NCBI RefSeq assembly: GCF_053078305.1
Contig: NZ_CP166879.1
DNA length: 64,000 bases
Reading direction: 5' to 3' (one strand)
Position numbers: made by a program. Numbering within the stretch: the first letter of the stretch is position 1; every line of letters begins with the position of its first letter. Positions 27,001 to 33,000 of the stretch are shown here, one piece after another.

Positions 27001-30000
27001 CATCAAATTAATGCCTCTTCTCATTTCTTCTGCTGTCATCCGCACAGCAGAAGAATTCCTCATTGACTATTATCGCGCAATTTGCTCACATGGATTAAAT
27101 TAAACTACATACTATAAGATATAAACTTCTGCCTACAGCTGTAAGAAACTCCGCTCAGTACTGAAGCACCAGTCCTATTTCCTCTTTTCTCCAGCCTGTT
27201 ATATTAAGCATACTGATTAACGATTTTTAACGTTATCCGCTAAATAAACATATTTGAAATGCATGCGACCACAGTGAAAAACAAAATCACGCAAAGAGAC
27301 AACTATAAAGAAATCATGTCTGTAATTGTGGTTGTCTTATTACTGACCCTTACGTTGATAGCCATTTTTTCGGCAATTGATCAGCTGGGCATTTCAGAAA
27401 TGGGTCGCATTGCAAGAGATCTTACACATTTCATTATCAATAGTTTGCAAGACTGAAAATAAACAGCAAATTATAAATATGAAATGTTAAAAAAGTATCG
27501 ATAAAAACTTTATTGTTTTAAGGAGATAAAATGTCGCTCGTTTGTTCTGTTATATTTATTCATCATGCCTTCAACGCTAACATTTTAGATAAAGATTACG
27601 CCTTCTCTGACGGCGAGATCCTGATGGTAGATAACGCTGTTCGTACGCATTTTGAACCTTATGAGCGGCATTTTAAAGAAATCGGATTTAATGAACATAC
27701 CATTAAAAAATATCTACAATGCACTAACATCCAGACAGTGACGGTGCCTGTTCCTGCGAAGTTTTTACGTGCTTCAAATGTACCGACTGGATTGCTTAAT
27801 GAAATGATTGCTTATCTCAACTCGGAAGAACGCAATCATCATAATTTTTCAGAACTTTTGCTTTTTTCTTGCCTGTCTATATTTGCCGCATGCAAAGGTT
27901 TCATTACACTATTAACTAACGGTGTGCTATCCGTTTCCGGGAAAGTGAGAAATATTGTCAACATGAAGCTGGCGCACCCATGGAAGCTGAAAGATATTTG
28001 TGACTGCCTGTACATCAGTGAAAGCCTGTTGAAGAAAAAACTAAAGCAAGAGCAAACGACATTCTCACAGATTCTATTAGATGCCAGAATGCAGCACGCA
28101 AAAAATTTGATACGCGTAGAAGGTTCAGTCAATAAAATTGCCGAACAATGTGGTTATGCCAGTACATCTTATTTTATTTATGCGTTCCGCAAACATTTCG
28201 GCAACAGTCCGAAGAGAGTTTCTAAGGAGTATCGTTGTCAAAGGCACACGGGTATGAACACGGGCAACACGATGAATGCTTTAGCTATTTGATTATTTGC
28301 TAACGAGTAGTCAACCACACACGCTACGTAAGAATTAAATGGGGCAGCCATTCCCTGCCCCGCGTTGTTTTTAGGCGATAGATTTATTGAAATAAATAAG
28401 TGACATTCATCACATATTTATGCATTTGCATAACCTGTTGCATGATTATTTATGATCTCAATTCGGCATTTTGTCAGTAAAATACAATAATTTATTAAAT
28501 ATCAATAGATTAGTTGTTTATCGGCGAGAAATTACTTAGTAGAACAGAAAGTAATGTCAACGCTTTATGGACTGTTATTTCCCTTTTTTTAGCTAAATCT
28601 GCTATCTCTTTATGTGACTAACTTCACTTACATCCACTTATTTCTCTTCGTAAAATTACTTTGGAATTAAGTACAATAAGAAGAGGAACATTTATGAAGT
28701 CTGCATTAAAGAAAAGTGTCGTAAGTACCTCGATATCTTTGATACTGGCATCTGGTATGGCTGCATTTGCTGCTCATGCAGCAGATGATGTAAAGCTGAA
28801 AGCAACCAAAACAAACGTTGCTTTCTCAGACTTTACGCCGACAGAATACAGTACCAAAGGAAAGCCAAATATTATCGTACTGACCATGGATGATCTTGGT
28901 TATGGACAACTTCCTTTTGATAAGGGATCTTTTGACCCAAAAACAATGGAAAATCGTGAAGTTGTCGATACCTACAAAATAGGGATAGATAAAGCCATTG
29001 AAGCTGCACAAAAATCAACGCCGACGCTCCTTTCATTAATGGATGAAGGCGTACGTTTTACTAACGGCTATGTGGCACACGGTGTTTCCGGCCCCTCCCG
29101 CGCCGCAATAATGACCGGTCGAGCTCCCGCCCGCTTTGGTGTCTATTCCAATACCGATGCTCAGGATGGTATTCCGCTCACAGAAACTTTCTTGCCTGAA
29201 TTATTCCAGAATCATGGTTATTACACTGCAGCAGTAGGTAAATGGCACTTGTCAAAAATCAGTAATGTGCCGGTACCGGAAGATAAACAAACACGTGACT
29301 ATCATGACAACTTCACCACATTTTCTGCGGAAGAATGGCAACCGCAAAACCGTGGCTTTGATTACTTTATGGGATTCCACGCTGCAGGAACGGCATATTA
29401 CAACTCCCCTTCACTGTTCAAAAATCGTGAACGCGTCCCCGCAAAAGGTTATATCAGCGATCAGTTAACCGATGAGGCAATTGGCGTTGTTGATCGTGCC
29501 AAAACACTTGACCAGCCTTTTATGCTTTACCTGGCTTATAATGCTCCGCACCTGCCAAATGATAATCCTGCACCGGATCAATATCAGAAGCAATTTAATA
29601 CCGGTAGTCAAACGGCAGATAACTACTACGCTTCCGTTTATTCTGTTGATCAGGGTGTAAAACGCATTCTCGAACAACTGAAGAAAAACGGACAGTATGA
29701 CAATACAATTATTCTCTTTACCTCCGATAATGGTGCGGTTATCGATGGTCCTCTGCCGCTGAACGGGGCGCAAAAAGGCTATAAGAGTCAGACCTATCCT
29801 GGCGGTACTCACACCCCAATGTTTATGTGGTGGAAAGGAAAACTTCAACCCGGTAATTATGACAAGCTGATTTCCGCAATGGATTTCTACCCGACAGCTC
29901 TTGATGCAGCCGATATCAGCATTCCAAAAGACCTTAAGCTGGATGGCGTTTCCTTGCTGCCCTGGTTGCAAGATAAGAAACAAGGCGAGCCACATAAAAA

Positions 30001-33000
30001 TCTGACCTGGATAACCTCTTATTCTCACTGGTTTGATGAGGAAAATATTCCATTCTGGGATAACTACCACAAATTTGTCCGTCATCAGTCAGACGATTAC
30101 CCGCATAACCCCAACACTGAGGACTTAAGCCAATTCTCTTATACGGTGAGAAATAACGATTATTCGCTTGTCTATACAGTAGAAAACAATCAGTTAGGTC
30201 TCTACAAACTGACGGATCTACAGCAAAAAGATAACCTTGCCGCCGCCAATCCGCAGGTCGTTAAAGAGATGCAAGGCGTGGTAAGAGAGTTTATCGACAG
30301 CAGCCAGCCACCGCTTAGCGAGGTAAATCAGGAGAAGTTTAACAATATCAAGAAAGCACTAAGCGAAGCGAAATAACTAAACCTTCATGCGGCGGATTTT
30401 TCCGCCGCCTTATTGAGCGAGATAGCGATGCACGTTACAGCCAAGCCCTCCAGTTTTCAATGTAATCTCAAATGTGATTACTGTTTTTACCTTGAAAAAG
30501 AGTCGCAGTTTACTCATGAAAAATGGATGGATGACAGCACTCTGAAAGAGTTCATCAAACAATATATCGCAGCGTCTGGCAATCAGGTCTATTTTACCTG
30601 GCAAGGCGGTGAACCCACTCTGGCTGGCCTGGATTTTTTCCGTAAAGTTATTCACTATCAACAACGCTATGCAGGCCAAAAACGTATTTTTAATGCATTA
30701 CAAACGAATGGCATTTTATTGAATAATGAATGGTGTGCCTTTCTCAAAGAACATGAATTTCTGGTTGGTATCTCGATCGATGGCCCCCAGGAGTTACATG
30801 ACCGTTACAGACGCAGTAATTCAGGTAACGGTACTTTTACAAAAGTGATAGCAGCCATCGAGCGTCTGAAATCATATCAAGTAGAGTTTAATACGTTAAC
30901 CGTCATTAATAACGTTAATGTCCATTACCCTCTTGAGGTTTATCATTTTTTAAAATCTATCGGCAGTAAACATATGCAATTTATCGAATTGCTAGAAACC
31001 GGGACGCCGAATATAGATTTCAGTGGTCATAGTGAGAACACATTCCGTATCATTGATTTTTCTGTGCCTCCCACGGCTTATGGCAAGTTTATGTCAACCA
31101 TTTTTATGCAATGGGTTAAAAACGATGTGGGTGAAGTTTTCATCCGTCAGTTTGAAAGCTTTGTCAGCCGTTTTTTGGGGAATGGGCATACCAGTTGTAT
31201 TTTCCAGGAGTCCTGCAAGGATAATCTGGTTGTTGAAAGTAATGGAGACATTTACGAATGCGACCATTTTGTCTATCCACAGTACAAAATTGGAAACATT
31301 AATAAATCTGAACTCAAAACGATGAACAGTGTACAACTGACAGCGCAAAAAAAACGGATTTCAGCGAAATGTCTGAAATGTGCATATAAACCTATCTGCA
31401 ATGGCGGTTGTCCTAAGCATCGTATTACTAAAGTAAACAATGAGACTGTTTCTTATTTTTGCGAAGGTTATAAAATCCTTTTTTCAACCATGGTACCTTA
31501 TATGAACGCCATGGTAGAGTTAGCTAAGAACAGAGTACCGCTTTACCACATTATGGATGTTGCAAAACAAATGGAGAATAATTAATAACGCTCCCTCTTT
31601 GCTCCAGTCTTAGCCTCCTTCTTATGGCCTTAACAAGACACCCGACATAAATTCCTGTTGGGTGTTTCGTCATATCATCTTCCCTTGCGAAAATCCTGGC
31701 ATACGTGGTATGCGTCAGGGCATTAGCAATACCCTTGATTATCAATAGCATAACCATAACCACTGAAAATTAAAAATTTCTATATATTTCATATTGTTAA
31801 ATGATACTTAAATAAATTTCATCAGTAAATCATTGCCATAGATAATCATTGGATGGCACAATCAATTTTCGCTAATGATAACCATTCCCATTACGTTTTG
31901 TATGTTGATAGCAAAGTATCTCTGTCTGCTGAAGCCCTTTTGGCTGCGTAAGAATAATAAAACTTCAGTGTTGTTAATCATTATTATCCTCGCCATGATC
32001 CTTGGCGTGGTTAAAATTCAGGTCTGGTTAAACGACTGGAATAATGATTTTTTCAATGCGCTAAGCCAGAAAGAAACCGATAAGCTTTGGCAGCTTGTCC
32101 TTTGGTTCCCTGCCCTGCTGGGGATCTTTGTATTAATATCCGTAAACAAAACATGGTTAATTAAACTGCTGACTATTCGCTGGCGCGAATGGTTAACAGA
32201 TTACTACCTTAATCGGTGGTTTGCAGATAAAAACTACTACTTCACGCAGATCTACGGCGAGCATAAAAATACAGATAACCCTGACCAGCGTATCGCTGAA
32301 GACATTCTCTTACTGATCAGCAAAACGCTCAGTCTTTCATTTGGCTTCATCCAGTCACTTAGCATGCTGATCACCTTTACCGTTATTCTTTGGCAAAGCG
32401 CGGGTACGCTCTCATTCACTGTTGGTGGAACAGAATGGAATATCCAGGGGTATATGGTCTATACCGTCGTGCTCATTGTGATCGGTGGAACTTTATTTAC
32501 CCATAAGGTAGGTAAACGTATTCGTCCGCTTAATGTGGAAAAACAACGTAGCGAAGCGACATTTCGAACTAATCTTGTGCAGCATAATAAACAGGCAGAA
32601 CTGATTGCGCTAAGCAATGCTGAGTCTCTACAACGCCAGGAGTTGAGCGACAATTTTCATACCATTAAAGAGAACTGGCATCGTTTAATGAATCGTCAGC
32701 GGTGGCTTGATTACTGGCAGAATATTTATTCGCGTTCGCTTAGCGTTCTTCCGTACTTTCTGTTATTGCCGCAGTTTATTAGCGGACAGATCAATCTGGG
32801 CGGACTGATGAAATCGCGCCAGGCCTTTATGCTGGTATCGAACAATTTAAGCTGGTTTATTTATAAATATGACGAACTTGCTGAACTGGCTGCGGTTATC
32901 GATCGTTTGTATGAGTTCCATCAACTCACCGAACAGCGCCCTACGAATAAGCCTAAAAATTGCCAACATGCGGTACAAGTGGCTGATGCGAGTATTCGTA

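Follow-up and report, generated by a model that had tools for sequence, protein, structure and literature searches.

The stretch analyzed here (the window) comprises 64,000 nucleotides of contig NZ_CP166879.1 from the NCBI RefSeq assembly GCF_053078305.1, and the present report deals with two adjoining open reading frames (ORFs) on its plus strand, ydeN and ydeM, which occupy positions 28694-31585 and which encode a sulfatase and its predicted activating enzyme. ydeN (28694-30376) starts with ATG and codes for a Ser-type S1 sulfatase precursor of 560 amino acids, and ydeM (30428-31585), which also starts with ATG, codes for a radical S-adenosylmethionine (SAM)/SPASM anaerobic sulfatase-maturating enzyme (anSME) of 385 amino acids. 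The reading of the ORFs, with which the RefSeq annotation agrees, placed the pair and its S-x-P-S-R motif, to the base, where an earlier note on this DNA had located them. The RefSeq names attached to identical DNA (100%, in one Escherichia coli chromosome) are ydeN and ydeM, and the gene order in RefSeq is ydeP, safA, ydeO, ydeN, ydeM, (yneP), yddA, yddB, pqqL. The YdeN protein of the window is 100% identical to that of strain K-12, and the YdeM protein differs from its K-12 counterpart by five substitutions, none of which involves a cysteine or a ligand. Since YdeN, the DNA immediately upstream (the final 100 bp before ydeN), and the ydeN-ydeM spacer are all identical to those of K-12, the literature on K-12 is directly applicable to the window.

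The start codons were assigned in the light of the upstream sequences and of the orthologs, which were obtained by scanning one genome per species and amount to 15 complete loci. The ATG of ydeN at 28694 is preceded at a distance of 6 nt by a strong Shine-Dalgarno sequence, AAGAGGA (28681-28687). A TTG codon at 28661, which would add the residues MELSTIRRGTF and with them a twin-arginine-like pair, was rejected: it is devoid of a Shine-Dalgarno sequence, in contrast to the ATG, it precedes the predicted transcription start, and the N-termini of the orthologs are Lys/Arg-rich and of the Sec type, without the RR pair. In the case of ydeM, the ATG is backed by the N-terminus M-H-(V/I/F)-T, which is kept among the orthologs, and the TTG at 30413 was discarded since every ortholog starts at this aligned motif.

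YdeN, a predicted Ser-type sulfatase

The YdeN sequence matches the Pfam Sulfatase profile (PF00884) over all its positions (1-301 of 301) with a score of 238.9 bits, the cut-off being 25. Its formylglycine signature is S-G-P-S-R at amino acids 132-136 (29087-29101, plus strand; bases TCC GGC CCC TCC CGC), where Ser132 is the predicted formylglycine precursor. This is the sole C/S-x-P-x-R site in the protein, and it runs on as SGPSRAAIMTGR, the extended sulfatase signature: the residues S132-G-P-S-R-A-A-I-M-T-G-R (29087-29122) fit the pattern C/S-x-P-x-R followed by x4-T-G. A serine occupies the formylglycine position in all 15 orthologs, among which SGPSRA is invariant, and since YdeN does not contain a single cysteine, the enzyme can only be of the Ser type. 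The Ser-type S-x-P-S-R signature which the earlier note had read in ydeN was thus confirmed, and upon alignment it coincides with the CGPSR/SGPSR motif of the solved S1_19 sulfatases.

The metal-binding and catalytic residues, the roles of which were assigned from established knowledge of the S1 family, are D66/D67, K183/H185, H286, D345/N346, and K364, and they are all invariant among the 15 orthologs. The motifs DDLGY, SGPSR, GKWH, NAPH, SDNG, and K-G-x-K (K364) align with the catalytic motifs of the solved S1_19 enzymes. Amino acids 1-29 (28694-28780, plus strand) read as a Sec-type signal peptide, with a Lys-rich n-region, a hydrophobic core, and the residues A-H-A (amino acids 27-29) before the predicted cut. 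Inspection of the YdeN N-terminus showed no twin-arginine motif, and the N-termini of the orthologs are similar; the protein is listed as periplasmic in the literature on the pH response.

YdeM, its probable maturase

YdeM scores 503 bits with the NCBIfam model TIGR03942 (anaerobic sulfatase maturase), the cut-off of which is 349.45, over profile positions 1-362 of 363. This anSME equivalog model is the only one that YdeM passes, all the models for maturases of peptides (RiPPs, which are synthesized ribosomally and modified post-translationally) remaining far under their own cut-offs. The radical-SAM [4Fe-4S] motif C12-x3-C16-x2-C19 (30461-30484, plus strand) is invariant in the 15 orthologs, and the identification of ydeM as an anSME-like radical-SAM gene carrying CX3CX2C was therefore correct. 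The SPASM region (31196-31462, plus strand), which scores 26.9 bits with the Pfam SPASM profile (cut-off 21.5), contains the auxiliary-cluster cysteines C257, C263, C278, C315, C318, C324, C328, and C345, together with Asp279. Each of these eight cysteines aligns with a cysteine of the Clostridium perfringens enzyme anSMEcpe (PDB 4K36), so that the full auxiliary set is present, and all 11 cluster cysteines (three radical-SAM and eight auxiliary) are invariant in the 15 YdeM orthologs. The two findings by which the earlier note would have considered its reading disproved, a missing target motif upon alignment and a lack of auxiliary cysteines in YdeM, were both checked for, and neither was encountered.

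A natural knock-out of the maturase gene exists in E. coli Ec-042-T5-ESBL (NZ_CP086532.1), where ydeM is split by the insertion sequence IS2.

Distribution, synteny, and selection

The ydeN-ydeM locus was found in 5381 of the 5426 complete E. coli genomes, and both ORFs are intact in about 99% of the 5426. The 15 orthologous loci span Escherichia, Leminorella, Citrobacter werkmanii, Cedecea, Mixta, Grimontia, Psychromonas, Anaerobiospirillum, and Fusobacterium. The relatives of YdeN encoded in them show 54-100% identity, and a YdeM homolog (46-99% identity) is located directly downstream of the YdeN homolog, on the same strand, in every one of the 15 loci. Neighbors recurring across the genera (a transporter, a glycosidase, or a regulator) were sought around these loci and none were found: the flanking genes differ from one genus to another, comprising a response regulator and GH4, PhzF and an N-acetyltransferase, ThiI, RpiR and a DHDPS-family protein, a TnsE fragment and ROK, or an M48 peptidase. 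The fact that the flanks are not shared, together with the fixed adjacency of sulfatase and maturase, suggests that the two genes travel as a self-contained cassette.

In comparisons with Escherichia sp. and E. albertii, the ratios of nonsynonymous to synonymous substitution rates (dN/dS) ranged from 0.014 to 0.027 in the case of ydeN and from 0.045 to 0.079 in that of ydeM. Purifying selection of this strength argues against the idea of a decaying relic. Judging from their fixed adjacency, ydeN and ydeM form a true functional pair.

The synonymous divergence between E. albertii and positions 28694-31585 of the window is very high (dS 1.3-1.6), with YdeM 87.5% identical and dN/dS below 0.05; old alleles or an exchange of the cassette between lineages may be responsible for this divergence. 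The contig JARKOR010000108.1, which was binned in a metagenome-assembled genome of 'Candidatus Nanosynbacter', carries the E. coli ydeN and ydeM (100 and 99.5% protein identity, respectively) and is almost certainly mis-binned E. coli DNA. Further downstream in the window, the gene for the TonB-dependent receptor, yddB (33598-35970, plus strand), is intact and encodes 790 amino acids, whereas in the near-identical strain ES5 (locus L001, 11199-13571) its reading frame ends prematurely, at codon 280, and the annotation is that of a pseudogene.

Upstream region and regulation

Upstream of the pair, ydeO ends in an intrinsic terminator (28340-28372, plus strand; identical in K-12), which consists of an 8-bp GC stem (28340-28362) followed by CGTTGTTTTT; the stem and the T-run after it, TTGTTTTT, make up a canonical terminator according to the terminator scan. 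On its upstream side, the ydeN transcription unit is bounded by this terminator. It is followed by the regulatory spacer of ydeN (28363-28693, plus strand), which is 331 bp long and as AT-rich as the earlier note had described it, with 28.7% G+C vs. 48.2% in the window.

Only three sites with one mismatch to the CRP consensus TGTGAN6TCACA occur in the 64 kb of the window, and two of them are located in the ydeO-ydeN spacer, where they were identified as sequence matches: a distal CRP-like site, AGTGACATTCATCACA (28399-28414, plus strand), and a proximal one, TGTGACTAACTTCACT (28613-28628, plus strand), 81 bp upstream of the ydeN ATG. The proximal site is identical in K-12 and kept in E. albertii and Escherichia sp., and similar CRP-like sites are present upstream of the Leminorella and C. 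werkmanii orthologs. The best sigma-70-like promoter match (28627-28656, plus strand) is composed of CTTACA, an 18-nt spacer, and TAAAAT, with a predicted start near 28663. The proximal CRP-like site shares 2 bp (28627-28628) with the predicted -35 element and would be centered near -42 with respect to the start predicted by consensus alone. The promoter scan of the region gave 9 sites as against 9.9 in shuffled sequence, and since such sites are no commoner than in shuffled sequence, the promoter call is weak. The AraC consensus TAGC-N7-TCCATA with up to three mismatches was matched 405 times, 431 matches being expected by chance, and the consensus search was therefore uninformative for placing the published AraC site.

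Copies of ydeN-ydeM-yneP were also found on several E. coli plasmids of the IncFIB type, which measure about 96-120 kb and come for the most part from pigs. In plasmid pYLPI6a (locus L018, NZ_CP074043.1; 5000-9081), IS5 is joined at CTAA about 100 bp before the ydeN ATG, which corresponds to window positions 28593-28596. At this junction on the plasmids, most of the AT-rich spacer is cut off and the proximal CRP-like site and the promoter are retained.

Arabinose-dependent repression of ydeNM by AraC was reportedly demonstrated by Stringer et al. in 2014. In published data, AraC is bound to the region upstream of ydeN only when arabinose is present and deletion of araC increases the expression of ydeMN, while GadX binds the ydeN promoter and lowers the ydeN transcript. 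At pH 4.4, ydeN is among the most strongly shut-off genes, along with malE, xylF, and treC (log2 -5.3 for mRNA and -5.1 for ribosome occupancy), and its transcript is abundant enough at neutral pH for a drop of about 40-fold to occur on acid shift. ydeN is included in the list of CRP targets obtained by genomic systematic evolution of ligands by exponential enrichment (SELEX), and a SELEX peak of FlhDC lies upstream of ydeNM. Other published observations are the induction of ydeN by a sulfonated azo dye, the up-regulation of ydeM in the mouse gut, the detection of YdeN peptides in O157 cultures in anaerobic rumen fluid, and the absence of any phenotype of a ydeN deletion in one reported assay.

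The suggestion in the earlier note that the pair is regulated separately from its neighbors is borne out by the ydeO terminator and by the published AraC, GadX, pH 4.4, and CRP SELEX data. Since GadX represses ydeN and acidity at pH 4.4 shuts it off, this regulation is separate, yet linked to the acid network, in which ydeNM is wired in the opposite direction to its EvgA-activated neighbors. From the CRP-like sites, the effect of AraC with arabinose, and the repression by GadX and acid, we infer a control of the catabolite or sugar-hierarchy type.

Intercistronic hairpin and 3' end

The spacer between the two genes contains a GC hairpin, GCGGCGGA-TTTT-TCCGCCGC (30389-30408, plus strand), which is separated by 12 nt from the ydeN stop and by 19 nt from the start of ydeM and is followed by CTTATT; it is terminator-like, with a poor U-tract. 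It comprises eight GC-rich pairs, has a predicted energy of -17 to -18.7 kcal/mol (z -2.4), and is the strongest hairpin of the pair. A hairpin with different stem sequences occurs at the same place in the spacer of six Enterobacterales and Grimontia, and in an alignment of seven species, eight of the nine hairpin pairs show a compensatory double change, each in one or more of the species. Conservation extends to the T-rich tail, full T-runs being present in Leminorella and Grimontia (CTTTTT, CTTTTTT).

Since ydeN and ydeM are reported to be co-transcribed and co-regulated, the hairpin, judging from its sequence, probably acts as a partial terminator or attenuator, or as a stabilizer of the mRNA 3' end, favoring the sulfatase over the maturase, which is catalytic. 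What speaks against termination is that the tail CTTATTGA has only four T in eight positions and falls short of a canonical U-tract; the terminator scan made no call at 30389-30408, because the CTTATT tail is too T-poor.

Downstream of ydeM, an 11-bp hairpin (31637-31666, plus strand; z -2.9) is a weak candidate terminator, at which the terminator scan called no terminator. It lies inside yneP (31551-31673, minus strand), a small ORF of 40 amino acids annotated in RefSeq, which is convergent with ydeM and overlaps its last 35 nt. An RNA-seq study listed yneP-ydeM as a convergent 'excludon', and antisense transcription of yneP could affect the 3' end of ydeM. The earlier note had endowed the pair with a terminator of its own. 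This holds good insofar as a canonical terminator ends ydeO upstream; the strongest hairpin, on the other hand, separates ydeN from ydeM and is no boundary of the pair, and past ydeM there is only the weaker hairpin inside yneP.

Proposed mechanism and alternatives

Very probably, ydeN-ydeM is a self-contained two-gene sulfatase cassette in which Ser132 is matured by YdeM in an oxygen-independent manner. Transcription would start past the ydeO terminator, within the AT-rich spacer. As expected from the homologous AtsB/AtsA and anSMEcpe, cytoplasmic YdeM, with two auxiliary [4Fe-4S] clusters besides the one that binds SAM, would bind the unfolded YdeN precursor at S132-G-P-S-R, and the 5'-deoxyadenosyl radical would take the C-beta hydrogen of Ser132, which would be converted into C-alpha-formylglycine without any need for O2. 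YdeN would then be exported by Sec and cut by signal peptidase after A-H-A (amino acid 29). Hydrolysis of the sulfate ester would take place in the periplasm and would be carried out by the hydrated formylglycine together with the residues K183/H185/H286/K364 and a divalent metal, for which D66/D67/D345/N346 would be the ligands. The intercistronic hairpin, by terminating or stabilizing part of the transcripts, would supply the sulfatase in excess of its maturase. The earlier note had taken the pair to imply anaerobic maturation: the oxygen-independent chemistry expected of YdeM agrees with this, which is no proof that maturation takes place solely without oxygen.

Several points weigh against this reading. 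Foreign Ser-type sulfatases produced in E. coli are usually inactive unless AtsB is co-expressed, which suggests that in the laboratory the chromosomal ydeM is expressed poorly or that its product is selective for certain substrates. The promoter and the CRP sites are predicted consensus matches. In the literature, the YdeN substrate is said to be unreported and the maturation of E. coli sulfatases 'not completely understood', and no formylglycine in YdeN, no sulfatase activity of YdeN, and no activity of any kind of YdeM have been described there.

The cassette might also be a cryptic, effectively silent relic, lying in silenced AT-rich DNA and giving products that are inert in present-day E. 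coli. The AT-rich promoter region on which several repressors act, the fact that neither a sulfatase phenotype nor a substrate has been reported, the lack of a phenotype of the ydeN deletion in the single assay reported, and the fact that foreign Ser-type sulfatases normally remain unmatured in E. coli are all consistent with this idea, which is nevertheless improbable in view of the ORFs intact in about 99% of 5426 genomes, the dN/dS values of 0.014-0.08, and the catalytic residues and cluster ligands that are invariant as far as Fusobacterium. Nor does it square with a transcript that drops about 40-fold on acid shift, with the YdeN seen in anaerobic rumen-fluid culture, or with the up-regulation of ydeM in the mouse gut.

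We consider it still less likely that YdeM is a general or different radical-SAM/SPASM maturase (acting on AslA, YidJ, or a peptide) which is not dedicated to YdeN and adjoins it incidentally. YdeM does show strong sub-threshold matches to the peptide-maturase models DynA, DarW, and YhhB, anSMEs act on Cys as well as on Ser substrates, and further sulfatase genes exist in E. coli; however, the anSME model alone was passed (503 vs. 349 bits), the RiPP models being far under their cut-offs, and the adjacency is observed in 15 of 15 loci in distant taxa with no other conserved neighbor. YdeM may also mature other sulfatases, which is compatible with this adjacency. That YdeN might be another enzyme of the alkaline phosphatase superfamily (a phosphonate monoester hydrolase, a phosphodiesterase, or a transferase), as its generic RefSeq product name ('sulfatase-like hydrolase/transferase'), its weak matches to the Phosphodiest, LtaS, and YejM models, its failure to reach the cut-off of any NCBIfam sulfatase equivalog model, and the existence of S1 members that are promiscuous phosphonate or phosphate esterases might suggest, is hardly credible given the invariant full formylglycine signature and S1 catalytic set, an obligate partner whose sole known job is to make formylglycine, and best sequence and fold matches that are all bona fide carbohydrate sulfatases.

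A two-gene sulfatase cassette therefore remains the reading we prefer, and the finding as such is not new. The pair was reportedly described computationally by Schirmer and Kolter in 1998. It is also named in reviews on sulfatase maturation, and the ydeN-ydeM genes, their motifs, their pairing, and their control by AraC and GadX are already on record. The additions made here are modest: the presence of the intact cassette in gut-associated taxa that are only distantly related, the covariation in the intercistronic hairpin, the pair of CRP-like sites, and the placing of YdeN in the neighborhood of S1_19/S1_16. The locus, which belongs to the core of E. coli, is a textbook-style case of an enzyme encoded beside its post-translational activator. 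If YdeN desulfates host or dietary glycans, this would explain the gut-associated regulation and would clarify why only some foreign sulfatases are matured in E. coli, in which recombinant ones are usually produced.

Substrate and comparison with known systems

The best matches of YdeN among solved structures are the S1_19 carrageenan sulfatases (E 2e-52 to 1e-50, over YdeN 109-436). An AlphaFold (AF2) model of YdeN, built from the 15 orthologs, was of moderate quality, with a mean predicted local distance difference test (pLDDT) score of 66 and a predicted template modeling (pTM) score of 0.70; its best PDB matches were S1_19 enzymes (ZgCgsA, PsS1_19A/B; Foldseek E about 1e-27), followed by S1_16 and other carbohydrate sulfatases. 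Judging from sequence and model, the closest characterized relatives of YdeN are the S1_19/S1_16 sulfatases acting on galactose 4-sulfate or N-acetylgalactosamine (GalNAc) 4-sulfate, and S1_19 enzymes remove the galactose 4-sulfate of carrageenans. Since these are the nearest relatives, a sulfated sugar is the most likely substrate, and our best guess, made with low confidence, is that this sugar might be galacto-configured. This guess is weakened by the overall identity to S1_19, about 25-27%, by the pLDDT of 66, and by the fact that neither a glycoside hydrolase nor a transporter accompanies the pair across the orthologous loci. YdeN is not mentioned in the text of the SulfAtlas paper.

It is conceivable, and we suggest this tentatively as a rather unlikely whole, that the pair is a portable module for 4-O-sulfated galactose or GalNAc in gut-associated Enterobacterales, Succinivibrionaceae, Vibrionaceae, and Fusobacteria, in which the hairpin would set a high ratio of sulfatase to maturase, and CRP, AraC, and GadX would put desulfation low in the sugar hierarchy and switch it off in acid. 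Possible substrates of such a module are fragments of chondroitin-4-sulfate or mucin and oligosaccharides of dietary carrageenan.

The S1_19 enzymes (ZgCgsA, 9HH2/3; Pseudoalteromonas S1_19A/B, 6B0J, 6BIA, 6PSM) have the same catalytic motifs as YdeN, including (C/S)GPSR. They are natively Cys-type (CGPSR) and belong to marine polysaccharide-utilization loci, whereas YdeN is Ser-type and has no linked glycoside hydrolase or transporter; YdeN also differs from them by an extra insertion of roughly 25 amino acids (about 84-108) and a longer C-terminal region. On the maturase side, anSMEcpe (PDB 4K36-4K39) resembles YdeM from end to end (E 4e-63, YdeM 4-359 vs. 7-362), and the two proteins have in common the three radical-SAM cysteines, the eight auxiliary cysteines, the motif GGEP, and the Asp following auxiliary cysteine number three. 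The natural substrate of anSMEcpe is a Cys-type sulfatase, whereas the partner of YdeM, an enzyme known from its sequence, is Ser-type.

Within the same genome, E. coli aslA/aslB is a second sulfatase/anSME-like pair, and the pairing is of the same kind as that of ydeN/ydeM. AslA belongs to the Cys type, and the asl genes differ from ydeNM in their arrangement and regulation. In a 2007 study, ydeM and aslB were reportedly deleted together, and neither was needed for the aerobic maturation of Cys-type sulfatases.

The closest parallel to the pair as a whole is AtsA/AtsB of Klebsiella pneumoniae, a Ser-type periplasmic arylsulfatase and its radical-SAM maturase. Both systems combine a Ser-type S-x-P-x-R sulfatase carrying a Sec-type signal peptide with an adjoining CX3CX2C/SPASM maturase, and oxidation in the cytoplasm followed by export is expected in both. 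The order of the genes in Klebsiella is atsB-atsA, the reverse of ydeN-ydeM, where a hairpin stands between them. The signal to which AtsBA responds is sulfur starvation, whereas ydeNM is under the control of AraC, GadX, and probably CRP, and YdeN, unlike AtsA, is nearer to the carbohydrate sulfatases than to the arylsulfatases.

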